From Minisyncoccota bacterium (GTDB lineage: Bacteria; Patescibacteriota; Minisyncoccia; Phycocordibacterales; UBA2100): a DNA stretch of 61,148 nucleotides. The DNA lies in NCBI GenBank assembly GCA_035559235.1, contig DATMBM010000014.1:1-61148 (forward strand), in the 5' to 3' direction. Below are positions 17,792-51,780 of this stretch, piece after piece. The translations under genes were made by a program, and so were the position numbers. The notes beneath the pieces are model-generated. The model worked only from the letters and a program-made list of their open reading frames with translations, was not told where the DNA came from and searched no databases. Each line of letters opens with the position of its first letter. Position 1 is the first letter of the stretch.

Positions 17792-19846
17792 ATGAATCTT
17801 CTCGGTACTTTCAGATACTCGCGAAGCGATGCGCTTAAAATGGCCGTGCTGTTTATCGCGTTTGTCATCGCGGCGGCGATCGGACGCACGCTCTTTACGA
17901 TGCCGGCGGTCATCCAGCCTGCGGCGGGCGTCGCGTTTGCAGGGCTCGTGCTTGGCGGAATCGCACTCTGGCCGGCCATCGTTGCCGCCAGCATTGTGAA
18001 TAGTCTGATTGTCGGGACTCCGCCGATTGTGACGTTGACCACGGCGGCCGCGCACGCACTGCATGCCATCATTGGCGCGTTTATCCTACGTTCAGGCGGC
18101 TTCGACCCGGTTTTCCGGCGCGTTCGCGACATGTTCCTCTTCATAGCGGTTGCGCTCAGTGTTTCCACAATCCTTCCGACCCTCGGGATTCTGGGCATCA
18201 TGCTCCACAACGCTCTCTTGGATCCTGACTGGCCGATGAGGGCAACCTGGATTTCGTGGTGGGTCGGCACAATGATTGGGGATCTCATTCTCGCATCCGC
18301 TGTCATCCGCTACTTCGCAAAGCCGCATTTCACGCGGACTTCCAAAGAGATAATCGAACTCTCGGTCGCGTTTGCGGCGCTCGGCCTCTTCACCTATCTT
18401 GTCTACTGGGTCGACGTGTCGAGCACAGCTCGTGGCATATACCTACTGCTATATCTCGTTTCGTTCGTGTGGTTTTCGCTGCGTCTTGGAAACCGATTCA
18501 CCCTGATCGCATTTGCGCTTTCAAGCGTCGTCGCTGTGACGGGCACGCTGTATGGAAATGTCCCGTCTGAAGCGGCGCTGCCGCAAAGGATCATTACGCT
18601 CGAATTCTTCCTTGCAACGCTCGCCGTCATCTTCTACCTTTTCACGACGGTCGTCGAGGAGCGCAAGCGCAGCGCCCGGCAGCTGCAAATGCAATTAAAT
18701 CGCGTCAACAATTTGCTCGAAGAATCAAAACGACAAGACAACGCGAAGAGCGAATTTATCGCCGTGTTTGCGCACGAATTGCGCAATCCGCTCGCTCCAA
18801 TCGTGAGTTCCGTCGAGCTGTTGAAATTGCGCTGGGGAGCGCACCCGGAAATCGCACCGATAGTCGAGACGATCGAAGATCGCACGCGGACGATCGTGAG
18901 ACTCCTCGATGATCTACTCGATGTCTCCCGCATTTCCCGCCAGAGCTTCAAGCTAAAGGAGGAGAAATTTGACGTGCGAGAACGCATCGAAGATGCGACG
19001 CGCGCGATGCGTCCGCTCGTCCAGGAACACGGGCTCTCTCTCACCACATCGATGCCAAACCATCCCGTATATCTATTTGCCGATTCAGTTCGCGTTGAGC
19101 AGATCATTGGGAACCTTCTCATGAATGCAATCAAGTACACGCCGTCCGGCGGGCATATCATGCTTGTCGTCCGCGAAGATGGAGACGTGGCGGAAATTCG
19201 CGTGAAAGATACCGGCGTCGGAATACCGAAAAAATTGTTGCGGAAGATTTTTGAGCCGTTTTCGCATCTCGGTGCGGAACGACAACAGCATAGAAAAATC
19301 CGTACAGGACTGGGCATTGGGCTATGGCTCACTGAGAATTTGGTCAACATGCATGGCGGTACGATCACCGCACGTAGTGACGGCCCCATGCTCGGCAGCG
19401 AATTCGTCGTGCGTCTGCCTCGATTATTAGAACAAGTCCCTGGTATGGAAGATTCGGCACAACCGGACGACTCGGCCAATCCGATACGCACCGGTACCCT
19501 CAAGGTCCTCGTCGTCGATGACAACGAAGCGGCGGCAAAAGGTCTTGGCACACTCCTCGAATACAGCGGCAACACAGTCGCGCTTGCGTATGGAGGCGCT
19601 GAGGCCGTCAAGAAATCCCGCGAATTTTCTCCTGATGCGGTCGTCCTCGACATCGGGCTTCCCGACGTGAATGGATACGAAGTTGCGCAGATGCTGCGAG
19701 AAGAAGGATATCGCGGAAAAATCGTCGCGCTCACCGGATACGGCCAGGAAGAAGATAAACGGAAGGCCCGGGAAGCCGGCTTCGATGACCACCTGACGAA
19801 GCCTGTGGGCATCGCCGATTTACAAGCCGTGTTGGTACAGGCGTAA
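17792..19846 (+). CDS. hybrid sensor histidine kinase: MASE1-like membrane domain, HisKA, HATPase_c, receiver
   Basis: ~300 aa polytopic N-terminus, H-box FIAVFAHELRNPLAP, N/G boxes (LLMNAIKYTP; DTGVGIP; GLGIGL), C-terminal REC (VLVVDDNEAA...VLDIGLPDVNG...TKP). Confidence 0.9.
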   Translation: MNLLGTFRYSRSDALKMAVLFIAFVIAAAIGRTLFTMPAVIQPAAGVAFAGLVLGGIALWPAIVAASIVNSLIVGTPPIVTLTTAAAHALHAIIGAFILRSGGFDPVFRRVRDMFLFIAVALSVSTILPTLGILGIMLHNALLDPDWPMRATWISWWVGTMIGDLILASAVIRYFAKPHFTRTSKEIIELSVAFAALGLFTYLVYWVDVSSTARGIYLLLYLVSFVWFSLRLGNRFTLIAFALSSVVAVTGTLYGNVPSEAALPQRIITLEFFLATLAVIFYLFTTVVEERKRSARQLQMQLNRVNNLLEESKRQDNAKSEFIAVFAHELRNPLAPIVSSVELLKLRWGAHPEIAPIVETIEDRTRTIVRLLDDLLDVSRISRQSFKLKEEKFDVRERIEDATRAMRPLVQEHGLSLTTSMPNHPVYLFADSVRVEQIIGNLLMNAIKYTPSGGHIMLVVREDGDVAEIRVKDTGVGIPKKLLRKIFEPFSHLGAERQQHRKIRTGLGIGLWLTENLVNMHGGTITARSDGPMLGSEFVVRLPRLLEQVPGMEDSAQPDDSANPIRTGTLKVLVVDDNEAAAKGLGTLLEYSGNTVALAYGGAEAVKKSREFSPDAVVLDIGLPDVNGYEVAQMLREEGYRGKIVALTGYGQEEDKRKAREAGFDDHLTKPVGIADLQAVLVQA

Positions 19847-25861: not shown

Positions 25862-26024
25862 ACGATTATTTTTGAATATGGCTAAACCCGCGCTGAGCGC
25901 GATTACTCCCATTCTCTACGGTGGCGATTAAAGGGGGATGAAGCTATGCGCATGGTGGCACTTACCGCAAATACATTTGGTATACTTACAGTGCGGCCGT
26001 CTAGGGAAGCGGATCAGTGTCGCA

Positions 26025-28091
26025 ATGAGTCAGACAGTACGCGCGTATGCCCTCTTTGCACTCCAGTTCCTGGTAGTGTTTGGGGTTTATTTTTATACAG
26101 CACGTTGGGGTTTGAACCTCAGCGCCATCAATGATTTTGCCGCACTCGTGTGGCCTGCGACCGGTATCGCGATCGCTGCGGTATACGTGCTCGGGTACCG
26201 GATCGCACCGGCGATCGCGCTTGCGGCATTCGCGGTCAATTATCTTATCGGCGCTCCGATTCTTGCCGCGACGGCGATCGGCATCGGCAATTCGCTCGAG
26301 GCGGCGATCGGCGTATGGCTTCTGCGCAGTTTCGGTTTCAATCCGCTGTTCAGCCGGCTCGTTGATAGTTTTGTATTCATCGCGGTCGCGATTTCAGCCA
26401 CCGTCATTAGTGCGACCATTGGAACGACGACGCTTGGCCTCACCGCACTGCTGTCGGCAGCGGATGTGCCGGTGACCTGGCTGGCGTGGTGGGTCGGAGA
26501 CACCATCAGCGCCCTTATCCTTACGCCGTTCCTCATCCGCTGGCTCGCGACCCCGATTACTCGATCGCGACGAACGGTTGCGCAGCTGCTTGAGGGTCTC
26601 GCATTCTTCACAGCGCTGATCGCGCTGACGCTTCTTGTGTTCTGGGATCCGATACCGGGGCTGCACGAAATCATGCACCCGTACATGGTTTTCGTGCCCC
26701 TCACGTGGGGGGCATTGCGTGTAGGGCCTCGCGCAATGACGCTCGCGATTGCGACGGTCGCAGCGCTAGCCACCTTCGGCACCCTTGCCGGAACCGGACC
26801 GTTCGCGTTTATCGACGGCGGCCGGGAGCTGTTCCTGTTCGCCCTCTTCCTCTCCACCGTAGCATTCATCTTCCTGCTCTTCGTAACGGCAGTGGAAGAG
26901 CGCAAAAACGCTTCAAAACGCCTTGAGGAAAATATTGTGTCCCTCCAGGAAGACGTTGAGGAAATATCCGCCGCCGACCAGGCGAAGAACGAATTTATCG
27001 CGACGCTTTCGCACGAGCTGCGCAACCCGCTCGCGCCCATTCTCTCATCGCTTGAAATTATCCGGATGGGGCGCTTGCAAGAGCGCGATGCGAGGCCACT
27101 GATTGAAACGACGTATGAAAACGTCATGCGCATGACACGCCTTCTTGATGACCTCCTCGATGTCGCACGCATTTCCCGTAAGCAGTTCACGCTGCAGATG
27201 AAAACCGCGAGCCTTAAATCAATCGTGCAGCATGCGACAGCGATGGCGCAGCCACTTATGCAAAAGCACGGCCATTCGTTCTCATCCGCGCTGCCACGTG
27301 ACGACATACAATTACACGCCGACCAACTGCGCATCGAGCAGGTTATCGTTAACCTGCTCAATAATGCCGCAAAATATACGCCGCCTGGCGGCACTATTTC
27401 CCTTGCGGCACATGCGTCACGCGACGGTGCAGAAATACGCGTGCGTGACAACGGCATCGGCATTTCAAAGCACTTGCTCGAAAAAATATTTGAGCCGTTT
27501 AAACGATTCGGTAACGGGCAGCGCGTCGCGGAAAGTGCAGGCCTCGGCATCGGCCTCTCGCTGGCGAAACGTCTCGTCGAACTGCACGGCGGCAGAATCG
27601 AGGCGCGAAGCGATGGTCCCGGGAAAGGAAGTGAATTCGTCGTGTGGCTTCCGGTCGCTGATGCCCCGCTCTTATTGCCCACCGCTTCCGAATCGCAAGA
27701 CGTGCGAACCCCCGCTGAGCCGTCCCGCAAAAAAGAGCGGAAACGGGTGCTTATCGTCGATGACAATAAGGACGCCGCCGAAGGCATCGCGCGACTTTTA
27801 AACCACAGCGGCCATGAGGCACATGTCGCGCTCGACGGCGCGCACGCGCTCGCAACACTTGCCAATTTCCGTCCCGACGTCATCTTTCTCGACATCCAGC
27901 TACCGGGCGAGAGCGGCTACGACCTGCTCCGCACGATCAGAAATTACCTCGATCCGGCACCCTATTTCGTCGCGCTCACCGGCTTTGGACAGGAAGAGGA
28001 CAAAGAAAAAGCGCGCGAAGCAGGTTTTGACGGTTTCTTGACAAAGCCGGTTTCCATCGCCGATTTGGAAAAAGTCTTATCCCATTCCTGA
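26025..28091 (+). CDS. hybrid sensor histidine kinase, paralog of 17792-19846 (MASE1-like, HisKA, HATPase_c, receiver)
   Basis: Same architecture. H-box FIATLSHELRNPLAP, REC VLIVDDNKDAA...FLDIQLPGESG...TKP. Start set at MSQTVRAY. Confidence 0.9.
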   Translation: MSQTVRAYALFALQFLVVFGVYFYTARWGLNLSAINDFAALVWPATGIAIAAVYVLGYRIAPAIALAAFAVNYLIGAPILAATAIGIGNSLEAAIGVWLLRSFGFNPLFSRLVDSFVFIAVAISATVISATIGTTTLGLTALLSAADVPVTWLAWWVGDTISALILTPFLIRWLATPITRSRRTVAQLLEGLAFFTALIALTLLVFWDPIPGLHEIMHPYMVFVPLTWGALRVGPRAMTLAIATVAALATFGTLAGTGPFAFIDGGRELFLFALFLSTVAFIFLLFVTAVEERKNASKRLEENIVSLQEDVEEISAADQAKNEFIATLSHELRNPLAPILSSLEIIRMGRLQERDARPLIETTYENVMRMTRLLDDLLDVARISRKQFTLQMKTASLKSIVQHATAMAQPLMQKHGHSFSSALPRDDIQLHADQLRIEQVIVNLLNNAAKYTPPGGTISLAAHASRDGAEIRVRDNGIGISKHLLEKIFEPFKRFGNGQRVAESAGLGIGLSLAKRLVELHGGRIEARSDGPGKGSEFVVWLPVADAPLLLPTASESQDVRTPAEPSRKKERKRVLIVDDNKDAAEGIARLLNHSGHEAHVALDGAHALATLANFRPDVIFLDIQLPGESGYDLLRTIRNYLDPAPYFVALTGFGQEEDKEKAREAGFDGFLTKPVSIADLEKVLSHS

Positions 28092-28186: not shown

Positions 28187-28861
28187 ATGAAAATCCTCAT
28201 CGTTGAAGATGAACAAAAATTAGCTACCGCGCTTGCAAAAGGGCTCCAGCTCAAAGGGTACAGCGTCGACATCGTCGCCGACGGCAAGAAGGCGCTCACG
28301 CGCATGTCGTTGCACCGCAACGATTATGACCTTGTCATTCTCGATCTCATGCTTCCGTCCATGGACGGGCATGAGATCTGCCGGCAAGCGCGCGAGATGG
28401 GTGTCACCACGCCGATCCTTATCCTTACGGCGCGCAGCGAGACTGAAAAGAAAGTTGATCTCTTGCTGAGCGGTGCGGACGATTATCTGATAAAGCCGTT
28501 TTCGTTCGAGGAGCTTTCGGCGCGCGTGCATGCGCTTTTGCGCCGGCCGAACGAGACGGTCCCCGATGTCTTAAAAGTCGATAATATCGAGCTGAATCCC
28601 GTCGAGCGGACGGTGCGGAGAGACGGCGAGGAAATCCCGCTGACGCTGAAGGAATTCGGCCTCCTCGAATACTTCATGCGGCATCCAAACCAAGTCGTGA
28701 ACCGCGAGGATTTATTAAGTCATTTGTGGGATTTCAACTATGAATCGTTTAGCAATGTGGTGGATGTCCATGTCAAGAATCTTCGAAGAAAACTTGGCAC
28801 TCGAGGCGACGCGGGCATTCTGGAAACGGTTCGCGGCATCGGTTACCGCCTTCGCGGATAG
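28187..28861 (+). CDS. OmpR/PhoB-family response regulator
   Basis: REC (ILIVEDE...DLVILDLMLPSMDG...KPF) plus winged-helix trans_reg_C (LTLKEFGLLEYFMRHPNQVV...VRGIGYRL). Confidence 0.9.
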   Translation: MKILIVEDEQKLATALAKGLQLKGYSVDIVADGKKALTRMSLHRNDYDLVILDLMLPSMDGHEICRQAREMGVTTPILILTARSETEKKVDLLLSGADDYLIKPFSFEELSARVHALLRRPNETVPDVLKVDNIELNPVERTVRRDGEEIPLTLKEFGLLEYFMRHPNQVVNREDLLSHLWDFNYESFSNVVDVHVKNLRRKLGTRGDAGILETVRGIGYRLRG

Positions 28862-29933
28862 GTACCGGTACGATCCCTTTCTCCGGACGCAGATCAACGT
28901 GATCGGGATGTTGCTCCTCTTCTCGATCATTATCCTGACGCTTGTCGGCATTCTCATCGACTATCTCTATCGCGATATCGCACTCGCGATCCTGGCCAGT
29001 GTTCGCGATTCCATCGTCTCCGCCGGGGCGGGCTCGTCCCAAACGGTCTCGCTCCCGGCGCTCGAAGACATCCGGACCGAGAACTTCACGGCCATTGTCT
29101 TCATTACCGCCGCCGTGACCGTCGCGTTCGGCTTCTTGCTGACGCGCGTGGCGCTCGGCCCGACCCGCCAAGCGCTTTCCTCCCAGAAGCAGTTCATCGG
29201 CAACATCGCGCACGAACTCCGCACGCCGCTGAGCATCATTAAAACCAATACTGAAGTCCGTCTCATGGACCCAAACATCACGGCCGAGGCGCGCGTGCTG
29301 CACCAGAGCAACATTGAGGAACTCGACCGTCTCTCACAGATCATCAACAACCTGCTCTCGCTCTCGGCATCGGTGCGGCCGGAACGCATTGAATTTGCGC
29401 GCGTGGACGCCGCGGCGGTCGCGACGGAAGTGATGCAGAAATTGGAGGGCCTCGCCAAGCTGCGCAACCTTGATTTCACGATGCGCAAGGGCTATTCGTG
29501 CTTCGTCTGGGGCAACGAATCGGCGCTTGAGCAGATCATCACGAACGTCGTCAAGAATGCGATCAATTTCACGGGCCACGGCGGCCACGTGGCATTGACC
29601 GTCGAAGAGATCGGCGACAGCCATGTCGAAATTGTCGTCCAGGACAGCGGCGCGGGCATCGCGCGATCGGATTTGTTCCATATTTTTGAGCCGTTCTACC
29701 GCGCCGACGCGTCGCGCAACCGGGCACGCGGCGGCTCGGGGCTTGGATTGACGATCGTCTCGGAACTCGTAAAGCTCCATCGAGGAAAAATTACGGTGCG
29801 CAGCGCCGTCGGCCGCGGGACAACCGTCGTCATCTCGCTCCCCGCAGCGCCGGCACCGCATACCGATCCGACGATACGCACGCGCAAGACGCTTGATGAA
29901 GTTGCAGTCGATTTCTCGCACCGGCGGATGTAA
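28740..29933 (+). CDS. intramembrane-sensing histidine kinase (2 TM, ~35-aa loop, no HAMP); start uncertain
   Basis: H-box FIGNIAHELRTPL, N box VVKNAINFT, DSGAGI, GGSGLGL. Upstream ATGs overlap the RR gene by 92 nt or more. In-frame GTG 28899 just before TM1 is an alternative start. Confidence 0.8.
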   Translation: MNRLAMWWMSMSRIFEENLALEATRAFWKRFAASVTAFADRYRYDPFLRTQINVIGMLLLFSIIILTLVGILIDYLYRDIALAILASVRDSIVSAGAGSSQTVSLPALEDIRTENFTAIVFITAAVTVAFGFLLTRVALGPTRQALSSQKQFIGNIAHELRTPLSIIKTNTEVRLMDPNITAEARVLHQSNIEELDRLSQIINNLLSLSASVRPERIEFARVDAAAVATEVMQKLEGLAKLRNLDFTMRKGYSCFVWGNESALEQIITNVVKNAINFTGHGGHVALTVEEIGDSHVEIVVQDSGAGIARSDLFHIFEPFYRADASRNRARGGSGLGLTIVSELVKLHRGKITVRSAVGRGTTVVISLPAAPAPHTDPTIRTRKTLDEVAVDFSHRRM

Positions 29934-41460: not shown

Positions 41461-42183
41461 ATGCCGAAACATTTCTTCTTCGATCTCGACAAGACTCTCA
41501 CGGTCAGTCGTTCGCCGATGGCACTTCCCCATCAGGAGATTTTCGACCATCTATGCAATACGAGGGACGTCGTTGTTGTCACCGGTGGCACCGTCGAACA
41601 GATCCGCGAACAGGTAACGCCGCGATTCGAAGGTAAATATTACGCGCTCGCGCAAAGCGGCAATCACGCAATCGATATAAGCGGAGCAGAACTGTGGCGC
41701 GAAGCCATCAATGAGGCGCAAAGCGACGCCGTACACGCGTTTATTGAAAAACTTAAACGGCATTTTGATCTTACGGTAAAAGACGAGAATGACCTCGTGG
41801 AACACCGCGGCGCGCAGATTAGCTATAGCGTCATCGGATTCCATGAGGACGTTGAAAAAAAATATGCGTTCGACCCCGACGAAAAGAAGCGCGCCGCGGC
41901 ACTTGCGATGCTTTCCGAAGACGTGAAGCGACTCAATGATGTCGGTATTGAAGTAACGCCCGCCGGCACCACGACATACAATTTCATACTGCTCGGCAAA
42001 CATAAGGGATACAACGTCAAACGCCTCGCCGACCTCAAGGAGTGGAACCAAGACGACTGCGTGTACGTCGGGGACGCGCTTTTTCCCGGCGGCAACGATG
42101 AGAGCGTCATCGGCGTGCTCCCAACAAAGGCCGTGACGAACCCGGAAGATACGTTTCAGTATCTGGCGGGTCTTTTGGTATAA
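41461..42183 (+). CDS. HAD-IIB family phosphatase/phosphomutase-like protein
   Basis: Motif I FFFDLDKTLT, VVVTGG, C-terminal GDALFPGGNDE. Confidence 0.75.
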   Translation: MPKHFFFDLDKTLTVSRSPMALPHQEIFDHLCNTRDVVVVTGGTVEQIREQVTPRFEGKYYALAQSGNHAIDISGAELWREAINEAQSDAVHAFIEKLKRHFDLTVKDENDLVEHRGAQISYSVIGFHEDVEKKYAFDPDEKKRAAALAMLSEDVKRLNDVGIEVTPAGTTTYNFILLGKHKGYNVKRLADLKEWNQDDCVYVGDALFPGGNDESVIGVLPTKAVTNPEDTFQYLAGLLV

Positions 42184-43923: not shown

Positions 43924-45054
43924 CTACCGCACTTGCAGTTCGCGTTTGTCGTATTTCTCGCCAATCGGCGAAATAACGACCTTGCTCCGCTCGCTCGCAA
44001 AGATCGTGCCCGCACGAATACCTCCGAAGGGATGCTCTCCCGTTTCGAGAAGCAATAGTGCGTCATCTACGTGCCGCTCCGGAACAAAGAGCGCGAACCC
44101 GCCGCCCATGTTGAAATCTGCATACATGTGGCGCAACGAGACGCCGCCGTGTTCGGCGATGAATTCCAGCGCCGTCGGCACCTGAGGTACCGTATCGATC
44201 GCATATGTAAACTTCTCCGGCGCCCGCATCAATTTCCGACAACCGTGGCCGGTGATGTTGACGCAGTAATGGATTTCGATGCCGCGCTCCAAGCACTCTC
44301 CGATGTAACGCACGTAGATGTGCGTCGGATCGAGCAGCGCCTCGCCGTACATCCGCCCGTCAGGCATCTTTGTCAGGTACCCATTCGGAAGTTTGTTGGC
44401 GATATCCCGAGCTAGTGTGAGGCCGTTGGCATGGATGCCCGAGCTTTCGAGGAGGATGATGATGGCATCACCATGTTGAATGTTCCGCTTGATGAGACGC
44501 TCCTTCGGCATGATGATCCCGTCGGCCGATCCAGAGATAACGGCCTTCCCGGGCACGATCAAATCCCGCAGCGCAGGAGTTTCGCCACCGCCCCAGCACG
44601 TACCGGCGAGATCACAGGCGCGTCTCCAACCTTCGATCAGTTCTTTGTTCCGTTTCTCCCATTTGAACCAGTCCGATTGCGCGACCACGAGGTGCATCAT
44701 CATGGTAACCGGCAACACGCCGAGCGTGATCATGTCGTTGAAGACCATGGCCGCGCAGCATTGTGCGACATTGTCGTACTTCGGGGTTGATAGTGATTTT
44801 CCGACTTCCTCTACCGTACGCAAAGCCTCTGCAAATCTGTCCGCCGCGTCATTTTTCGTACCCAGGTTCTCATTCACCTGCCCGTGAAAATGATCCGAGT
44901 ATTCGACGAGAAACACGCTCTCTCCTTGCGTCCACTCGACAACCTTCAAGCCGAGCCTCGCGATGTTGCGATCGGTCTCCTGGGCTTTCGCAAGCGCGAG
45001 CCGCTTGAAAGCGTCCAGCGTCCCATACCCAACGTCGTAGCGATTGGTCGTCAT
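43924..45054 (-). CDS. PurM/AIR-synthase-related superfamily protein (divergent)
   Basis: Start at MTTNRYD (GGAG SD 9 nt upstream). GGGETPAL...SGSADGII...ESSGIHANGLTLARDI resembles PurM-type N and C domains. Confidence 0.65.
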   Translation of the reverse strand: MTTNRYDVGYGTLDAFKRLALAKAQETDRNIARLGLKVVEWTQGESVFLVEYSDHFHGQVNENLGTKNDAADRFAEALRTVEEVGKSLSTPKYDNVAQCCAAMVFNDMITLGVLPVTMMMHLVVAQSDWFKWEKRNKELIEGWRRACDLAGTCWGGGETPALRDLIVPGKAVISGSADGIIMPKERLIKRNIQHGDAIIILLESSGIHANGLTLARDIANKLPNGYLTKMPDGRMYGEALLDPTHIYVRYIGECLERGIEIHYCVNITGHGCRKLMRAPEKFTYAIDTVPQVPTALEFIAEHGGVSLRHMYADFNMGGGFALFVPERHVDDALLLLETGEHPFGGIRAGTIFASERSKVVISPIGEKYDKRELQVR

Positions 45055-45118
45055 CACTTTTTCTCCAATGAACAAAAACCAGAGGTGTGTCCCCTGGCCT
45101 AGGGGTAAGAATACCCGT

Positions 45119-45604
45119 TTATCGTTGCAAATCTACCCAGCGGTACGGCAGTCCTTCGTAGGCACGCTCCTCCTCAAATACCTTTTTTTTGAACTGGTCG
45201 TACGGCGGGAAAAAAGAGTCGGCGTCTTTGGCATCGTCGATAAGCGTCAAGTACAGCTTGTCCGTGTATGGAAGGCCGAGCTCGTAGATTTGCCCTCCGC
45301 CTATGATAAAAATTTCTTCGTTTCCCGGCTTAATCCGCGCCAGCTCGAGCGCCTCCTCCATCGACGCAACGGCGAGAGTGCCTTCGGCCGACCACCCTCT
45401 GTCACGGGTAATCACGATGTTTGTTCGATCGGGCAACGGCCGCCCGATTGACTCGTATGTTTTCCTCCCCATGATGACGGGATGTCCTTTCGTGATGCCT
45501 CGAAACCGCTTCAGGTCATCGGGGATTTTCCACAGGAGGTCGTTTCCCTTCCCCAGCTCGCGGTTGCGCCCGATCGCCGCGATCATGCTGATGCAACGCT
45601 GCAT
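45119..45604 (-). CDS. folA: dihydrofolate reductase
   Basis: ISMIAAIGRNRELGKGNDLLWKIPDDLKRFRGITKGHPVIMGRKTYESIGRPLPDRTNIVITRD. The start abuts the stop of the CofE-like gene. Confidence 0.85.
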   Translation of the reverse strand: MQRCISMIAAIGRNRELGKGNDLLWKIPDDLKRFRGITKGHPVIMGRKTYESIGRPLPDRTNIVITRDRGWSAEGTLAVASMEEALELARIKPGNEEIFIIGGGQIYELGLPYTDKLYLTLIDDAKDADSFFPPYDQFKKKVFEEERAYEGLPYRWVDLQR

Positions 45605-45605
45605 A

Positions 45606-46295
45606 CTAGTTGAGTGTATCAAACAACGGCCGATACAGATCATCCTCGATGTCGATATGGAGTTCCGTTCGGTCGATCGTGTCCACGAACTCAACAGGCG
45701 CGTCTTCGATGATGCACAGGGGCCGTTGCTCCGCACCCTCTCCCATTTCAAGAACGGCCGCTGTCGCCAGGCTATCGGCAACATCCGTTCGGGCAAGTTT
45801 TAGAATGCGCCCGAAAATATCGGGTGTTCCGCGATAGTCGCGTACGCCCTTGATTCCCGCATACCCAAGCGCCACCCCGACAATCCCCGCGCGAAGTGGT
45901 AAAACACGGCTATCAGTGATCACGACCCCGAATTTTGTTAGGCCGAAACGGCGCACAAGTGCGCTTCGCAATGCCTCGGCGGCGGCAAAACTGTCTTTCG
46001 GCAGGAGCACGAGTTTGCCGTCCGCATTTGATTCGTCCACTCCCGCCGATGACATAACAGTCCCGTCCTTAATGGTAAGCCATGTGTATTTTGTGCGTAT
46101 TGCGACGTCGCTTTCCTGTTTGATGATCTCGTCGCGACGCGCCACATCGGCAGTGCGCTTTTCCGATAGTGCGACGATTTTCGACGTGACGACCAGAATT
46201 GTCGCATCAGAAATTGCCGGAACATGTTCAACAACGAACGACTCGAGGTTCTCGCCTTCTTTAAAAATCCGCGTGTGGATGGGCTTCACCTGCAT
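45606..46295 (-). CDS. CofE-like gamma-glutamyl ligase family protein (F420-0:glutamate ligase fold)
   Basis: VKPIHTRIF..GENL..FV....I.D.TILVVTSKIVALSEKR...GVDESNADGKLVLLP pattern typical of the CofE family. Confidence 0.7.
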   Translation of the reverse strand: MQVKPIHTRIFKEGENLESFVVEHVPAISDATILVVTSKIVALSEKRTADVARRDEIIKQESDVAIRTKYTWLTIKDGTVMSSAGVDESNADGKLVLLPKDSFAAAEALRSALVRRFGLTKFGVVITDSRVLPLRAGIVGVALGYAGIKGVRDYRGTPDIFGRILKLARTDVADSLATAAVLEMGEGAEQRPLCIIEDAPVEFVDTIDRTELHIDIEDDLYRPLFDTLN

Positions 46296-46302
46296 CGCGG
46301 GG

Positions 46303-46311
46303 ACTATAGCA
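46303..46311 (-). promoter_or_regulatory. extended -10 (TGCTATAGT) 7 nt upstream of the CofE-like ATG
   Basis: The minus strand reads TGC TATAGT CCCCGCG ATG. Confidence 0.5.
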
Positions 46312-46320
46312 TAAAAGACA

Positions 46321-46345
46321 AGCGGCCGGACGAACCGACCGCTTT
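46321..46345 (-). terminator. intrinsic terminator after the 33-codon ORF
   Basis: AGCGGTCGG-TTCG-TCCGGCCGCT on the minus strand (one mismatch), followed by TGTCTTTTAT. Confidence 0.45.
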
Positions 46346-46362
46346 ACTCTGTTGAGCACACG

Positions 46363-46464
46363 TCAAATAACGTTAAAGATGATTAGGACGATGAGGGTGA
46401 ATGAACCGATCACCATCCCGAGGTGAAAGATCCACCGTTGCAAATGAAGCCTCCGCGACGTCAT
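46363..46464 (-). CDS. 33-aa hydrophobic small protein (not in the ORF track)
   Basis: GGGAGG-N5-ATG. MTSRRLHLQRWIFHLGMVIGSFTLIVLIIFNVI* (basic N-terminus plus one TM). Own terminator. Confidence 0.4.
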   Translation of the reverse strand: MTSRRLHLQRWIFHLGMVIGSFTLIVLIIFNVI

Positions 46465-46625
46465 GCGAACCTCCCGTGTGTGACGGACTGTGCCTCTGGG
46501 GGCACCCAGCGCGGCATCCTGACATGCCCTTACCCGGTGTCTAGCCCAGCGTCAAAAAAGGGCTCAGCACAGTCATTTTGCCCGCAACAGGCCACGAGTA
46601 GAAGCCTGCGTCAACAATACGATGC

Positions 46626-47258
46626 CTAGCCCGCCTTGTAGCTGGACTTCAACTTCCGAATATCCCCGCTGAAAACCAGCTTCATCTCCTTCGCCTTTTC
46701 CCTTGCCCCTTTCTCCACGACGTCCTTCATATGCCATCGACTCTTTCTCGCTTCTATCGGGTGGGTCAGCTGCTCAAACACGATTTGGCAGATGCGCTCC
46801 CCCGGATGCAGTTCGATGACTTGTGAATGGGTGTTATTCCGGATAGGCAACGTCAGCGGTCCTTCATAGCCGGAATCAATGATTCCGGTAAGGTCCACTG
46901 AGAGCCCCTTGCGATTGACGGATGACCGAGGATACAAAACGGCCATTAAATCGGCGGGTACTTTAATGGTCTCGTATGTCGAGACGAGCACATATTCGTG
47001 GGGCAGCAAATCGAACGACTGTCCTTGCTCAAGCTCGATGACGTCGAAGTACTCCGGTCCATGGTCGCGCAGCGGATCGATCATCATCGCCTCCCGGCCG
47101 CGCGCCGTCATCTGCCATGCTTTCGGAATTAAAAACGTAAACCCCAGCCGCAGGTCAACCGCATGCGCCTGCAACTGAAACGTGTCCAGCCCGGGCGTAA
47201 AAACAATCTCCTTGTCCTTCACCCGCTGCACAATCTCATCCTTCGTGAGTACTGCCAT
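46626..47258 (-). CDS. dCTP deaminase/dUTPase-fold (Dcd/Dut superfamily) protein, atypical active site
   Basis: AVDLRLG, YPRSSVNRKGL, GIIDSGYEGPLTLPIRNN, PGERICQIVF. A basic C-terminal extension. Confidence 0.75.
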   Translation of the reverse strand: MAVLTKDEIVQRVKDKEIVFTPGLDTFQLQAHAVDLRLGFTFLIPKAWQMTARGREAMMIDPLRDHGPEYFDVIELEQGQSFDLLPHEYVLVSTYETIKVPADLMAVLYPRSSVNRKGLSVDLTGIIDSGYEGPLTLPIRNNTHSQVIELHPGERICQIVFEQLTHPIEARKSRWHMKDVVEKGAREKAKEMKLVFSGDIRKLKSSYKAG

Positions 47259-47264
47259 ATGACT

Positions 47265-47270
47265 ATTCTA
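47265..47270 (-). promoter_or_regulatory. -10 box TAGAAT (uses the ThyA-like stop codon) 6 nt upstream of the Dcd-like ATG
   Basis: The minus strand reads TTG TAGAAT AGTCAT ATG. Confidence 0.45.
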
Positions 47271-48104
47271 CAAGACAATTTGTAATCCCTTGATCGCATC
47301 CTGCGGCTTGTATTGGCCGGTAAATGCGGCGACGATCTGCTCCACAAGCTTTACGTCTTTTTTTTCCGCCCGATCAAAGGAGTTTTTTGGGAGCGTAACC
47401 CTGATGGGCTTATGCGTCGCCTTACGCTTCAACATCTCCCGGACGGCTGCATACTGGTTGTCATAGACGTGCGCATTGGAGATCGAGTGGCTGTAAACCC
47501 CCGGCTTGACGCCGAGTTTCTGTGCCAGCATGAGTTGGAGCAGAGCGAATCCGGCCACGTCCGCGGGGAATCCCAAAACCATATCATTCGAGCGAACGAT
47601 ATTGTGGAGATTCAGACGCCCGTTGATGATGTTGACGGTGAATGAATACGGACACGGCACGTTTTTCCGGTTAGTGACGCCAAGGCCGTCACCCGCGGGA
47701 TCCCATGTGATGATGACGCCGTGCCGAGACGTCGGATCTTGCTTCAAGTGCTTCACCAAAAGCCCGAGCTGGTCGCGTCCGAAGTGCTTGCGCCAGCGAT
47801 AGCCGTACGCAACGGTGACAACGTCCGCAGGATTCGTGAAGACATCCCAGATCTTCGTGTATTCGCGCAAAAAATCGGCCGGTTTTCTCGCGCCGGAAAC
47901 AAACCAGATCTGCTCTGCCACAAACATTTTCACCGGCAATTTCCGCAACGTAAGCAGTGGAAAACCTTCCTTTTCGATATCGAGTGAGAAATGCATCCCG
48001 GGAATCGCTTTTACTTCGTGTCCCGTTCGCTTGTTAACTTCGGCAACTCCGTCTTTGACAATACGCCTTAACATGTCTTGATAGACGGAATCGAAACGCG
48101 CCAT
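47268..48104 (-). CDS. thymidylate synthase (ThyA, PF00303-type) family enzyme with Asp at the Asn177-equivalent position; possible dCMP methylase/hydroxymethylase
   Basis: KRTGHEV, GFPLLTLRK, EQIWFVSG, YGYRWR, DPTSRHGVIITWD, VPCPYSF, RSNDMVLGFPADVAGFALL, NAHVY. Collinear with E. coli ThyA. Confidence 0.85.
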   Translation of the reverse strand: MARFDSVYQDMLRRIVKDGVAEVNKRTGHEVKAIPGMHFSLDIEKEGFPLLTLRKLPVKMFVAEQIWFVSGARKPADFLREYTKIWDVFTNPADVVTVAYGYRWRKHFGRDQLGLLVKHLKQDPTSRHGVIITWDPAGDGLGVTNRKNVPCPYSFTVNIINGRLNLHNIVRSNDMVLGFPADVAGFALLQLMLAQKLGVKPGVYSHSISNAHVYDNQYAAVREMLKRKATHKPIRVTLPKNSFDRAEKKDVKLVEQIVAAFTGQYKPQDAIKGLQIVL

Positions 48105-48172
48105 AGTGGGGAGATTATATACTGCCGCTTCGACGTGGTATACACTATCTGGGCAATAGAAGGTACAACACC

Positions 48173-48655
48173 ATGACTTCGATTACGTATCCATACCTGC
48201 CTGGGAACCGCCAGTTCCGCTATGTACCGGAAGACAACGAGTATATGCTCGAGGCGCGATCGTACGCTCTCGCGCACTCGCTCGACGACGCGGTCAAAAC
48301 CGGATCAATTATCGTCAAGGACGGCGTCATCATCGGCCGCGGCGCCAACGGAAGTGACTACCACAAGACCCACCAATGCGAACGCGTGAGGCGCGGCATC
48401 CCGACTGGACAGGGCTATGAACTCTGCGAAGGGTGCCACCCGAAAAACCACAGCGAGCCACGCGCCATTGCCGATGCGCTAAAGAACGACGGCGATACTC
48501 GCGGTGCCGACCTCTACTTGTGGGGACACTGGTGGGCATGCGAGCCCTGCTGGAAAGCCATTACTGAAGCGGGCATCTCGAACGTCTACCTGATGGAGGG
48601 TAGCGAGCGGCTTTTTAACAGGGAGCATCCGGAAAACGTCCTCGGAAAATGGTGA
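48173..48655 (+). CDS. deoxycytidylate (dCMP) deaminase, zinc-dependent CDA fold
   Basis: CERVRRGIPTGQGYELCEGCHPKNHSEPRAI (HxE) and WACEPCWKAI (PCxxC-like). Confidence 0.85.
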   Translation: MTSITYPYLPGNRQFRYVPEDNEYMLEARSYALAHSLDDAVKTGSIIVKDGVIIGRGANGSDYHKTHQCERVRRGIPTGQGYELCEGCHPKNHSEPRAIADALKNDGDTRGADLYLWGHWWACEPCWKAITEAGISNVYLMEGSERLFNREHPENVLGKW

Positions 48656-48659
48656 TTCG

Positions 48660-48700
48660 ACGCCCTGCAGTTTGACGAAAACTGCGGGGCGTTCTCTTTT
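48660..48700 (+). terminator. intrinsic terminator after the dCMP deaminase gene
   Basis: ACGCCCTGCAGTTT-GACGA-AAACTGCGGGGCGT (one G-U), then TCTCTTTTC. Confidence 0.6.
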
Positions 48701-48734
48701 CAGATACCGAGCGCGAGCCGCTACGTACAAGCGG

Positions 48735-48740
48735 TATACT
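48735..48740 (+). promoter_or_regulatory. -10 box TATACT 6 nt upstream of the MazG-like ATG
   Basis: TATACT TAGTGC ATG. Confidence 0.5.
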
Positions 48741-48746
48741 TAGTGC

Positions 48747-49082
48747 ATGGACTTTGACGAGTACGAGAACGTAGCACGCGGGACCGCAACGTTCGATACA
48801 AAACCATTTGAGTACCAACTGATGTATCTCGCTCTCGGCATCGCGGGGGAAAGCGGAGAGATCGCGGAAAAAGTAAAAAAGATCATGCGCAACGACAACG
48901 GAACGGTTTCCGACGAAAAAAGAGAATTGCTCAAGGCTGAGATTGGCGATGTCCTGTGGTACCTTTCCCAACTTTCCCGCGTTCTCGGTTTTTCATTTTC
49001 CGAGACCGCGCGCGCAAACATCGATAAGCTCAAGGACCGCGCCGAACGCGGCGTGATAAAAAGCGCCGGGGATAATCGATAG
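48747..49082 (+). CDS. MazG-like all-alpha nucleoside triphosphate pyrophosphohydrolase
   Basis: LALGIAGESGEIAEKVKK...LKAEIGDVLWYLSQL (EExxE/D metal motifs of the MazG family). Confidence 0.8.
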   Translation: MDFDEYENVARGTATFDTKPFEYQLMYLALGIAGESGEIAEKVKKIMRNDNGTVSDEKRELLKAEIGDVLWYLSQLSRVLGFSFSETARANIDKLKDRAERGVIKSAGDNR

Positions 49083-49134
49083 GTATGATTTAGCTTCCCT
49101 ACAGCCCATACCCTATTCCCTAAAACCTATCTCT

Positions 49135-50403
49135 ATGGAACTCTACCCATACGTCAAAAAACAAGACAAGCAGGTGTACCAAGCGCTTATCGGCGAGGAA
49201 AAGCGTCAGGCGGAAGGACTTGAACTGATCCCTTCTGAAAATTACGTCTCGCGCGCCGTCCGTGAGGCGAATTTCTCCAATCTCACCAATAAATATTCCG
49301 AAGGATACCCCGGAAAGCGCTACTACGGCGGCCAGCACTACACGGATATCGTCGAAAATATCGCGCGTGATCGCGCGAAGAAACTTTTTGGCGCGAAATT
49401 CGCAAACGTCCAGCCGCATGCCGGCGCTCCAGCGAATGTCGCGATGTATTTCGCGCTCCTTGAGCCGGGCGACACGATTCTCGGCATGGATCTTTCGCAC
49501 GGCGGCCATCTCACGCACGGCCACCCCGTCACGTACCTCACGAAAATCTTCAAATTCGTCCGATACAAGATGAAAAATGCCGAAACCGGCGAGATGGATT
49601 ACGACGAAATGCGCGAGGTCGCGCTGCGTGAAAAGCCGAAAATCATCCTTGCCGGCTATAGCGCATATCCACGCGAACTCGATTACGGGAAGATGGTCGA
49701 AATCGCGCGCGAAGTCGGCGCACTTGCGGTGATGGATATCGCGCACATCGCAGGCCTTATTGCGGGGAAAGTGGTGAAGAACCCGTTCGATTATGGCTTC
49801 GACATCATGACCACGACAACGCATAAGACGCTGCGCGGCCCACGCGGCGGCATGATCCTCACGCGCGACAATGAGGAGATCGCACGCAAAATCGACAAGG
49901 CTGTCTTCCCGGGCTTCCAGGGCGGTCCATTAATGAATGCGATTGCCGCGAAGGCTGTTTGCTTCGGCGAGGCATTGAAGCCCTCATTCAAAACCTACGC
50001 AAAGCAGGTTCTTAAGAACGCCAAAGTGATGGAGGCGGTATTTAAAAAACACGGGGTCCGCATGATTACGGGCGGCACCAGCAATCACCTTATCCTCGCC
50101 GACGTGTATGGCTCGCTTGGGATCACGGGCCATGAGGCGGAGACCGTTCTCGACAAAGTCGGCATCACGCTCAATAAAAACGCGATTGCTGATGATCCGC
50201 GCAAGCCGATGGATCCAAGCGGCATCCGCTTTGGCACGCCGGCCATCACGACGCGAAAATTCAAGGAAAAAGAGTGCGCAAAGGTGGCGGAATGGATGAT
50301 CGCCGCGCTGAAGAACAAGGACAACAAAAAGGAATTGAAAAACATACGAGCGGAGGTCCAAAAGCTTTGCAAACGTTTTCCCATCCCGCCTCGATTCGTG
50401 TAG
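49135..50403 (+). CDS. glyA: serine hydroxymethyltransferase
   Basis: LELIPSENY, YPGKRYYGG, SHGGHLTHG, TTTTHKTLRGPRGG (PLP lysine). Confidence 0.95.
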   Translation: MELYPYVKKQDKQVYQALIGEEKRQAEGLELIPSENYVSRAVREANFSNLTNKYSEGYPGKRYYGGQHYTDIVENIARDRAKKLFGAKFANVQPHAGAPANVAMYFALLEPGDTILGMDLSHGGHLTHGHPVTYLTKIFKFVRYKMKNAETGEMDYDEMREVALREKPKIILAGYSAYPRELDYGKMVEIAREVGALAVMDIAHIAGLIAGKVVKNPFDYGFDIMTTTTHKTLRGPRGGMILTRDNEEIARKIDKAVFPGFQGGPLMNAIAAKAVCFGEALKPSFKTYAKQVLKNAKVMEAVFKKHGVRMITGGTSNHLILADVYGSLGITGHEAETVLDKVGITLNKNAIADDPRKPMDPSGIRFGTPAITTRKFKEKECAKVAEWMIAALKNKDNKKELKNIRAEVQKLCKRFPIPPRFV

Positions 50404-50412
50404 GATTACAGG

Positions 50413-51780
50413 ATGTTCTTCGGCTTCGATCTCACGCAGGCAATCGAAGTCCTCGGATACCCGGGGATTTTTGCGATCATTCTTGCCGAATCCGGCATCT
50501 TCTTCGGCGTCTCGCTGCCGGGCGGCTCCCTCCTCTTTACCGCCGGACTTCTCGCATCGCAGGGATTCCTCAACATCTACATTTTGCTTGCCGTCGTCAT
50601 CGTTGCGGCAGTCCTCGGCGATTCGATCGGTTACTGGTTCGGTGCATGGGTTGGTCCCGCGCTCTGGCGCCGACCGGACGGCCGGTTTTACAAAAAGCGC
50701 TATTTGGAACAGACGCGAGTCTTTTTCGACCAGCATGGCGCGCGCACCATCTTTCTCGCGCGCTTCATCCCGATCATCCGCACGTTCGCCCCGATCCTCG
50801 CCGGCGTCGCGAAAATGGAGTATCGCACGTTCTTCTTCTACAACATGCTCGGTGCCTTCGTTTGGGGCGGCGGTTTCGTACTCGCCGGTTATCTGCTTGG
50901 CGAAGCGATACCCGGGATCAAGGAATACTTGGAATACGCGATTCTCGCTATCATCGTTGTCACGACAATCCCCTTTCTTCTCCATATGAGGGCTGCGCAG
51001 CAAGTTGCGAGCGCCGGAAAGGTCCTGCCGCGGGCCGTCATTTTCGATCTCGACGATACGCTCGCTGAAAGCTACACGCCTCCGCGCGAGGAGATTCTTG
51101 GAAAACTCGCGGCACTCTCGCGCTCGACCGTTGTCGCGATCATGACGGGGGCGGCATACGACCGGGTCGAGCGAGATTTGATGCAGCGCTTCAAGGGAAC
51201 CCGTGGCGGCAACATGTACGTGTTTTCGGACAGCGCCGCACGCTGCTACACGTTTGAAAAGGACGATTGGCGCGAGGTTTACAATTTCTCGCTCGCGCCC
51301 GAAGACCGGCAGCGCATCGTCGCCGCAATCAGAGACGCCGTCCGTACGACCGGGATTTTCGACGGAGGCGAGGATCATTCGCGCATCATCGACCGCGAGA
51401 CGTCGGTCGCCTTCGCGGCGCTTGCTCCCGATGCGAGCCAGGAAGACAAGCGTGCGTGGGACCCAGACGGTTCAAAGCGGATGAAGCTGATCGATGAGTT
51501 GCGGGCCCGGGTTCCCGAATTTGAAATTTTTATCGGCGGCAAATCGACTATCGACGTGACGCGGGAAGGCATAACAAAAGAATACGGCGTGAAATGGCTT
51601 TCGAAGGAACTCAGCGTCGAGGCGCGTGATATGCTCTTTGTCGGCGACGGTTTTTACGAGGGCGGCAATGATGCGGTCGTGATCCCGACGGGCATCCAGA
51701 CTCGGGAAACGACGGGTCCTGCGGAAACGCTCCGCATCATCGATGAGTTGCTGGAGCAGTTCGGCTCAAAAGAGGCCTAG
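50413..51780 (+). CDS. fusion protein: DedA/VTT membrane domain (N) plus HAD-IIB phosphatase-like domain (C)
   Basis: N-terminus GYPGIFAIILAESGIFFGVSLPGGSLLFTAG...LARFIPIIRTFAPILAG. C-terminus VIFDLDDTLAES...FVGDGFYEGGNDAVV. The C-domain is paralogous to 41461-42183. Confidence 0.75.
   Translation: MFFGFDLTQAIEVLGYPGIFAIILAESGIFFGVSLPGGSLLFTAGLLASQGFLNIYILLAVVIVAAVLGDSIGYWFGAWVGPALWRRPDGRFYKKRYLEQTRVFFDQHGARTIFLARFIPIIRTFAPILAGVAKMEYRTFFFYNMLGAFVWGGGFVLAGYLLGEAIPGIKEYLEYAILAIIVVTTIPFLLHMRAAQQVASAGKVLPRAVIFDLDDTLAESYTPPREEILGKLAALSRSTVVAIMTGAAYDRVERDLMQRFKGTRGGNMYVFSDSAARCYTFEKDDWREVYNFSLAPEDRQRIVAAIRDAVRTTGIFDGGEDHSRIIDRETSVAFAALAPDASQEDKRAWDPDGSKRMKLIDELRARVPEFEIFIGGKSTIDVTREGITKEYGVKWLSKELSVEARDMLFVGDGFYEGGNDAVVIPTGIQTRETTGPAETLRIIDELLEQFGSKEA

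Follow-up and report, generated by a model that had tools for sequence, protein, structure and literature searches.

A gene cluster at positions 45119–50403 of contig DATMBM010000014.1 from a Minisyncoccota bacterium (61,148 nucleotides, analysed in full and referred to here as the window) encodes a thymidylate synthase (ThyA) homologue with Asp at the base-specifying position, hereafter ThyA(D). We read the cluster, with a probability of roughly 0.55, as the thymidylate-synthesis cluster of a Parcubacteria/Paceibacterota-type bacterium of the candidate phyla radiation (CPR), centred on a cytosine-specific ThyA homologue. Deoxycytidine monophosphate (dCMP) would be methylated to 5-methyl-dCMP and then deaminated to deoxythymidine monophosphate (dTMP), or the deamination would occur at the triphosphate level; methylation would precede deamination, so that deoxyuridine monophosphate (dUMP) would not be the methyl acceptor, across the whole bacterial class. 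The cluster consists of two divergent gene groups: on the minus strand ThyA(D), a Dcd/Dut-fold protein, a CofE-like gamma-glutamyl ligase and a dihydrofolate reductase (DHFR), and on the plus strand a Zn deaminase, a MazG protein and a serine hydroxymethyltransferase (SHMT). All seven genes listed for this neighbourhood in an initial annotation, which was made from the sequence alone, were recovered in place by Pfam and NCBIfam matches, and the 68 bp given there for the spacing of the divergent deaminase is exact (ThyA(D) starts at 48104 and the deaminase at 48173).

The initial annotation had proposed a dCMP-centred route on the strength of the gene neighbourhood. Taken by itself the neighbourhood fits the canonical dUMP pathway equally well, and the part of that proposal which stands is carried by the active-site signature of ThyA(D) and by its phage relatives. 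When the window protein and its 120 closest homologues were aligned with Escherichia coli ThyA and phage T4 gp42, Asp was found at the position of E. coli Asn177 in the window protein and in all of the homologues (120/120), in agreement with the initial Asp-type assignment and with membership of a clade like that of phage Xp12. The catalytic Cys146 is retained along with E58, W80, Y94, R166, S167, D169, H207, Y209 and a C-terminal tail like that of thymidylate synthase (TS), and the differences from E. coli ThyA (N177D, H147P, Q165V, W83F, L143N and R127H) are all fixed. The uracil-selecting network of dUMP-specific ThyA, formed by Asn177 with H147 and Q165, is replaced by D177, P147 and V165; the TS fold, with Cys146 and the tail that closes over the folate, is present. 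An AlphaFold2 (AF2) model of ThyA(D) with a mean confidence (pLDDT) of 95.2 has the full TS fold, with template modelling (TM) scores of 0.82–0.86 to solved thymidylate synthases. The top 50 structural matches of this model are all thymidylate synthases, and the T4 dCMP hydroxymethylase is not among them. For the reference sequences behind these comparisons (E. coli ThyA, Dcd and Dut; T4 gp42 and cd), the key residues that were checked matched the literature numbering (ThyA N177 and C146, gp42 D179 and C148, Dcd S111, R115, D128 and E138), and the T4 cd fragments obtained in the analysis agree with the sequence used.

The resulting signature, F83/N143/P147/V165/D177, is shared at positions 83, 143, 147 and 177 with the enzymes of Xp12 and RcRudolph, which have Leu at position 165, hydrophobic like the Val of the window protein. 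Read with the catalytic Cys as FNCPD, it is identical in the window, in Xp12, in RcRudolph and in 13 loci from IMG/VR. ThyA(D) was placed in the same company when 1.84 billion cluster representatives were searched exhaustively: 126 of the 150 nearest 50%-cluster representatives are Asp-type, almost all with F83/N143/P147, and canonical W83/L143/H147/Q165/N177 proteins occur among the 150 only at E values above about 1e-36. The best annotated phage matches belong to Xp12-like phages with 5-methylcytosine (5mC) in their DNA (36–40% identity, E values of 1e-44 to 4e-53), compared with 31% identity and an E value of 5e-27 for T4-type td. Among the Asp-type representatives are proteins in which ThyA(D) is fused to a deaminase (P0141), to a PRA-PH/MazG-like domain (P0160) or to an HNH nuclease (P0147). 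No natural Asp-type member is known to use dUMP. According to the passage of PMC8670742 that cites the work, the single substitutions N177D (E. coli) and N229D (Lactobacillus casei) turn TS into a dCMP methylase. From these features ThyA(D) is predicted to be a dCMP C5-methyltransferase of the Xp12 type (EC 2.1.1.54) and the central enzyme of the cluster.

ThyA(D) has Asp at position 177 in common with the T4 dCMP hydroxymethylase (gp42, also dCH; EC 2.1.2.8) and MilA, with cytosine as the predicted base, and a dCMP (or CMP) hydroxymethylase of this kind would furnish 5-hydroxymethyl-(d)CMP, to be used in modifying DNA or in building a nucleoside natural product. We consider this highly improbable here. 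The signatures proposed for hydroxymethylases are an acidic residue (Asp or Glu) three positions ahead of the catalytic Cys, a Ser or Thr two positions ahead of the catalytic Tyr, and a missing C-terminal tail; the D145N variant of T4 dCH is inactive, and DHFR is required only by the methylating reaction (PMC6400193). Unlike gp42, ThyA(D) has no water-activating Asp or Glu and no Ser/Thr partner: it reads N-V-P-C, with Asn three residues before the Cys, and V-A-Y, with Val two residues before the Tyr, and it keeps a TS tail ending in ...LQIVL. The exclusively TS-like structural matches given above also speak against hydroxymethylation, as do S167 and R126, which are kept and typical of deoxyribo-specific enzymes, and the DHFR in cis, which implies dihydrofolate (DHF) as a product. 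The Xp12 enzyme likewise has Asn three residues before the Cys and a DHFR in cis. The Asn, the Val, the intact tail and the linked DHFR together favour reductive methylation, and the hydroxymethylase reading was rejected on the signature residues. The preference for methylation expressed in the initial annotation is therefore upheld, with both DHFR and SHMT linked and the T4 hydroxymethylase signature absent.

A different combination of residues was seen among viral homologues. The window ThyA protein retrieved 61 IMG/VR loci, 13 with FNCPD and 48 (L107–L154) with (F/Y)83-D143-C146-N147-N177, which unites the hydroxymethylase Asp with the uracil-type Asn. Going by these residues, the (F/Y)DCNN enzymes are probably dUMP hydroxymethylases of phages with 5-hydroxymethyldeoxyuridine (5hmdU).

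When GTDB species were scanned with one genome each, 247 relatives were found, of which the best 80 (66–87% identity) and one further contig gave 81 loci; open reading frames (ORFs) were called in these and searched with the window proteins. The 80 loci are metagenome-assembled genomes titled mostly as Parcubacteria/Paceibacterota lineages (Kaiserbacteria, Adlerbacteria, Nomurabacteria, Taylorbacteria and others); many of the records carry the generic third-party annotation (TPA) title “uncultured Candidatus Saccharibacteria”, and one is a complete chromosome (CP066682.1). The deaminase was found in 80 of the 81 loci, the Dcd-like gene in 78, DHFR in 69, SHMT in 63, Tmk in 46, MazG in 25, canonical trimeric Dut in 15, a PurM-like gene in 14 and the CofE-like gene in 10. 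The commonest order, with arrowheads giving the direction of transcription, is SHMT< (MazG|Dut)< Tmk< Deam< ThyA(D)> DcdL> DHFR>. The core of divergent deaminase and ThyA(D)-DcdL-DHFR is almost invariant, and the clustering is not chance. Tmk within the cluster suggests a deoxythymidine (dT) nucleotide as its output. The CofE-like gene, counted initially as part of the set, is indeed present in the window and is only an occasional member elsewhere.

The tightest partner of ThyA(D) is the deaminase, which is divergent and adjacent to it in 75 of 80 loci. Its HxE (H93-x-E95) and CxxC (C123-x2-C126) motifs are invariant, and a further set resembling a metal site (H64/C69/C85/C88) recalls the second Zn site of the T4 enzyme. 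In Foldseek searches with an AF2 model (pLDDT 82) the top matches were the deaminases of T4, S-TIM5 and PBCV-1 and human DCTD (1VQ2, 4P9E, 7FH4 and 2W4L), at TM scores of only about 0.5–0.55. The allosteric G(Y/W)N(A/G) motif (PMC12088426) is lacking, the corresponding residues reading G-A-N-G, and the ComEB model TIGR02571 gave 29.8 bits against a cut-off of 219. We assign the protein to the Zn-dependent cytidine deaminase (CDA) fold and the dCMP-deaminase type, and propose by analogy that it would convert a 5-methyldeoxycytidine (5mdC) nucleotide into a dT nucleotide. Members of this family act on mono-, di- or triphosphates (bioRxiv 10.1101/2024.12.05.627091; PMC12088426). The same partnership is seen in viruses, where a CDA-fold deaminase lies within 7 kb in 12 of the 13 FNCPD loci from IMG/VR and a MazG-like gene accompanies 11 of the 13; a deaminase in cis was found in only 2 of the 48 Asn-type loci (Fisher's exact test for 12/13 versus 2/48, p = 6.5e-10).

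The Dcd-fold protein, which the initial annotation had mentioned only as completing the set, is no bystander: its gene is nearly universal in the loci, where it mostly follows ThyA(D) directly and otherwise comes after DHFR, and the protein has lost the Glu of the deaminases. The catalytic Glu138 of E. coli Dcd is replaced by Pro in 74 of 75 cluster homologues, which argues that the protein is not a deoxycytidine triphosphate (dCTP) deaminase. It keeps the fold and the nucleotide-binding residues R110, S111, R115 and D128, features in common with dCTP deaminases, DCD-DUT enzymes and the Dcd-like dUTPases that archaeal viruses encode. Glu138 is present in all of the solved Dcd and DCD-DUT structures that were aligned and in the SIRV1, PhiF1 and HVTV-1 homologues, unlike in the window protein. 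By its residues the protein is probably a deoxynucleoside triphosphate (dNTP) pyrophosphatase (a dCTPase, dUTPase or 5-methyl-dCTPase), and the database name “dCTP deaminase” would then probably be wrong for the whole clade, even though TIGR02274 is passed. Three PDB entries of 155–156 residues named “dCTP deaminase” (9ln0, 9ln3 and 8y1w) have Met at the position of the catalytic Glu (...LTLMLYN), and these proteins too may not be deaminases.

The initial annotation had assigned the step from dCTP to dCMP to MazG, an assignment that the relatives do not favour. Residues E35, E38, E65 and D68 are invariant and the protein has a single MazG domain; a profile of 18 homologues matched YpjD (2GTA) at 4e-7 and DCTPP1/RS21-C6 at 3e-5, so that kinship with DCTPP1 is distant. 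In 55 loci the upstream sequence reaches 4 kb or more; of these, 18 have MazG only, 11 Dut only, 26 neither and none both; one locus with a short flank, L082, carries both. As MazG and Dut alternate in the same slot, MazG is more likely to be an analogue of Dut than to perform the dCTP to dCMP step, and its candidacy as a dCTPase or 5-methyl-dCTPase was downgraded for that reason. The absence of dut from related genomes, which the initial annotation had suggested looking for, was likewise not found, since about 15 loci have Dut within the cluster.

Viral (IMG/VR) or phage-like contigs (L085–L088, L094 and L095) carry the relatives of ThyA(D) that are closest outside the CPR (43–54% identity). 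All of these contigs have a deaminase beside ThyA(D), which is of the CPR type on L085–L088 and L095; homologues of the CPR-type deaminase beside ThyA(D) on four phage-like contigs have 31–39% identity to it (E values of 1e-18 to 1e-30). The same contigs also bear a Dut or a Pro-type Dcd-like gene, the latter beside ThyA(D) and the deaminase on L088. The GC contents measured, those of L085–L088, are 35–59%. These contigs may derive from phages of CPR bacteria, or may represent a source or a sink of the module.

The known system with the greatest likeness is the module of Xp12, PaMx74 and RcRudolph, which comprises an Asp-type ThyA, a DCTD-like 5mC-selective deaminase, DHFR and a MazG/PRA-PH-like pyrophosphatase (bioRxiv 10.1101/2024.12.05.627091). 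On viral contigs with modified cytosine, 70% of dCMP-deaminase genes lie within 3 kb of a TS homologue, mostly Asp-type; five of seven Asp-type enzymes with a deaminase in cis yielded 5mdC in vivo; the deaminase mSCD-B5 converts 5-methyl-dCTP into deoxythymidine triphosphate (dTTP) and does not act on the monophosphate; and the authors propose that Xp12-like phages bypass the dUMP-dependent TS (bioRxiv 10.1101/2024.12.05.627091). DCTD enzymes also deaminate 5-methyl-dCMP, and the Xp12 DCTD converts 5-methyl-dCTP into dTTP (PMC12088426). The window cluster shares with the Xp12-type module the four signature residues and the deaminase and DHFR in cis (Xp12, RcRudolph), and would share its proposed logic of methylating a deoxycytidine (dC) nucleotide and then deaminating part of the pool to a dT nucleotide. 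It differs in lying in a cellular CPR genome and being inherited across at least 247 species-level genomes, not viral ones, and, with the relatives included, in adding SHMT, Tmk, the Glu-less Dcd-fold protein and sometimes Dut or the CofE-like ligase. In the DNA of the cell, C presumably stays unmodified.

Substrate and product, the phosphorylation level of the deamination and the roles of the pyrophosphatases are what we infer from these comparisons. Judging from its signature, ThyA(D) would perform the reductive methyl transfer of phage Xp12 (dCMP + 5,10-methylene-THF -> 5-methyl-dCMP + DHF; THF, tetrahydrofolate), and DHFR and SHMT, by the standard reactions of their families, would recycle the folate from DHF through THF to methylene-THF, which the CofE-like ligase may glutamylate. 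The deaminase would strip the 4-amino group from the 5-methyl-dC nucleotide, a step suggested by linkage and phage precedent; the product would be dTMP, or dTTP if the enzyme, like its phage counterparts, used 5-methyl-dCTP. Tmk, in the cluster in most relatives, would phosphorylate dTMP onward. More speculatively, the Glu-less Dcd-fold protein and MazG or Dut might act as dNTP pyrophosphatases, providing dCMP and/or removing dUTP or 5-methyl-dCTP. Overall, the chemistry would be that of the textbook route with the order of methylation and deamination reversed.

Every neighbour of ThyA(D) would also suit the textbook route, in which the homologue would methylate dUMP, or both dUMP and dCMP, within an ordinary dUMP-dependent thymidylate operon, the deaminase would turn dCMP into dUMP, and the Dcd-fold protein, Dut and MazG would turn dUTP into dUMP. 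The fold, catalytic residues, tail and folate-recycling partners are those of the canonical ThyA-DHFR-SHMT cycle (E. coli and L. casei ThyA, EC 2.1.1.45), databases call the proteins thymidylate synthase, the NCBIfam model TIGR03284 is passed at 122.7 bits (cut-off 108.35), and the Dut genes that alternate with MazG in the cluster have a ready place. We nevertheless judge a canonical pathway with an odd enzyme to be unlikely. The CPR enzyme, unlike canonical ThyA, has the six fixed differences described above, and its predicted acceptor is dCMP, not dUMP. Asp with F83/N143/P147/V165 is invariant, the set at 83, 143, 147 and 177 is common to verified dCMP methylases, and N177D shifts TS towards dCMP in the work cited within PMC8670742. 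Other NCBIfam equivalog models are missed widely (NF002497 gave 146 bits against 327, and the other PRK01827 models fall far below), and the nearest relatives lie on phage-like contigs with the same deaminase. A supply of 5-methyl-dCTP for DNA would be another use of the same genes, with 5-methyl-dC nucleotides built in during replication and 5mC replacing C partly or wholly as in phage Xp12, and with dTMP made by a side branch or elsewhere. An Asp-type ThyA with a deaminase, DHFR and an NTP pyrophosphatase does match the module of 5mC-for-C phages, and 5mC would be invisible in short-read assemblies. Neither a dedicated 5-methyl-dCMP kinase nor dCTP-exclusion machinery is evident, and Tmk in 46 of the 81 loci and the universal deaminase point to dT as the product, so we regard such a supply as improbable. 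Our literature search brought up no report of pre-replicative 5mC from any cell, and 5mC supplied to chromosomal replication would, if true, be a first for a cellular organism.

Several points weigh against the dCMP-centred route that we favour. The specificity of ThyA(D) is deduced from one key residue and correlated neighbours, and if the enzyme took dUMP, nothing in its gene neighbourhood would set the cluster apart from a canonical source of dTMP. Of the seven phage enzymes of the Asp type, two gave no 5mdC (bioRxiv 10.1101/2024.12.05.627091). The canonical Dut of about 15 relatives and the possible dUTPase role of the Glu-less Dcd-fold protein suggest that dUMP is probably made, and the deaminase and MazG of the window are not close to their counterparts in Xp12 or RcRudolph. 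Queries with ThyX and E. coli ThyA sequences brought up no second ThyA and no ThyX, either in the window or in the 80 loci, each taken with ±10 kb; the search for thyX or an Asn-type thyA covered these sequences only.

Every cellular organism studied so far is thought to make thymidylate by methylating dUMP, through either ThyA or ThyX. Methylation of a dC nucleotide followed by deamination is documented only in phages, and what is new here is the cellular cluster; our search of the literature on cellular Asp-type ThyA, CPR thymidylate metabolism and 5-methyl-dCMP returned phage work only and did not find the route in cells. Should the Asp-type enzyme prove to be the thymidylate synthase, a large bacterial class would use a third, order-reversed route, and the names “thymidylate synthase” and “dCTP deaminase” would be mis-assigned in thousands of Patescibacteria entries. 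The reactive intermediate would then be 5-methyl-dC nucleotides and not dUMP, with consequences for the misincorporation of uracil and 5mC, and sensitivity to antifolates and nucleoside analogues may differ. The route would also bear on the exchange of nucleotide modules between phages and hosts, and the deaminase family would offer new deaminases active on 5mC, a type now used in methylome sequencing.

Table 1. Genes of the cluster and the divergent intergenic region, with positions in the window and the profile matches obtained
Feature	Position	Strand	Match
DHFR, folA-type	45119..45604	-	PF00186, 165.8 bits over ORF residues 69-210
CofE-like gamma-glutamyl ligase	45606..46295	-	PF01996, 130.7 bits
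Dcd/Dut-fold protein	46626..47258	-	PF22769, 121 bits; TIGR02274, 114 bits (cut-off 92.8)
ThyA homologue, Asp-type	47268..48104	-	PF00303, 183 bits
Divergent intergenic region ThyA(D)/deaminase, 68 bp	48105..48172	.	read from sequence
Zn deaminase, CDA fold	48173..48655	+	PF00383, 41.8 bits
MazG, small single-domain	48747..49082	+	PF03819, 44 bits
SHMT	49135..50403	+	PF00464, 496 bits; NF000586, 570 bits

The cluster lies in ordinary chromosomal surroundings. Elsewhere in the window are genes for glycosyltransferases, TGT, histidine kinases, TsaD, a tRNA synthetase and two tRNAs, and the GC content of the window is flat, which together indicate a chromosome and not a phage. A prophage or recent phage island was rejected on these grounds and on the ribosomal and tRNA-synthetase neighbours in relatives and the presence of the cluster in 80 species-representative genomes at 66–87% identity.

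Within the minus-strand group, the mechanically called DHFR ORF (45119–45796) carries 64 surplus codons at its 5' end and runs into the CofE-like gene. Translation probably starts from the ATG at 45604, one base past the CofE-like stop, a spacing that suggests translational coupling; a terminator-like hairpin lies beyond DHFR at 45100–45076. The best NCBIfam match of the CofE-like protein is TIGR04132, “putative folate metabolism gamma-glutamate ligase” (198.5 bits, under the cut-off of 350), and on this basis it is a candidate folate polyglutamylation enzyme; within the cluster it counts as an accessory member. A non-coding gap of 330 bp (46296–46625), with a terminator-like hairpin on the minus strand (46344–46320), separates its gene from the Dcd-like one. 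As the Dcd-like gene and DHFR are directly adjacent in most relatives, the CofE-like gene looks inserted. In the plus-strand group a strong terminator-like hairpin follows the deaminase (48659–48693). No riboswitch was matched by Rfam in the cluster or in the 330-bp gap, and a promoter scan did no better than shuffled controls.

Further genes were noted around the cluster. The minus-strand gene at 43924–45075 encodes a PurM-like protein related to AIR synthase (140 bits against the purM cut-off of 236), and this gene recurs a few kilobases downstream of the cluster in the 14 loci counted above. A 12-kb stretch of the plus strand encodes two hybrid histidine kinases of MASE1-HisKA-HATPase-receiver architecture and one more histidine kinase (17792–19846, 25938–28091 and 28740–29933), which is much signalling for a small CPR genome. 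Two phosphomannomutase-like HAD proteins are encoded on the plus strand at 41461–42183 and 50413–51780, the latter with an N-terminal DedA/VTT membrane domain, an unusual architecture.

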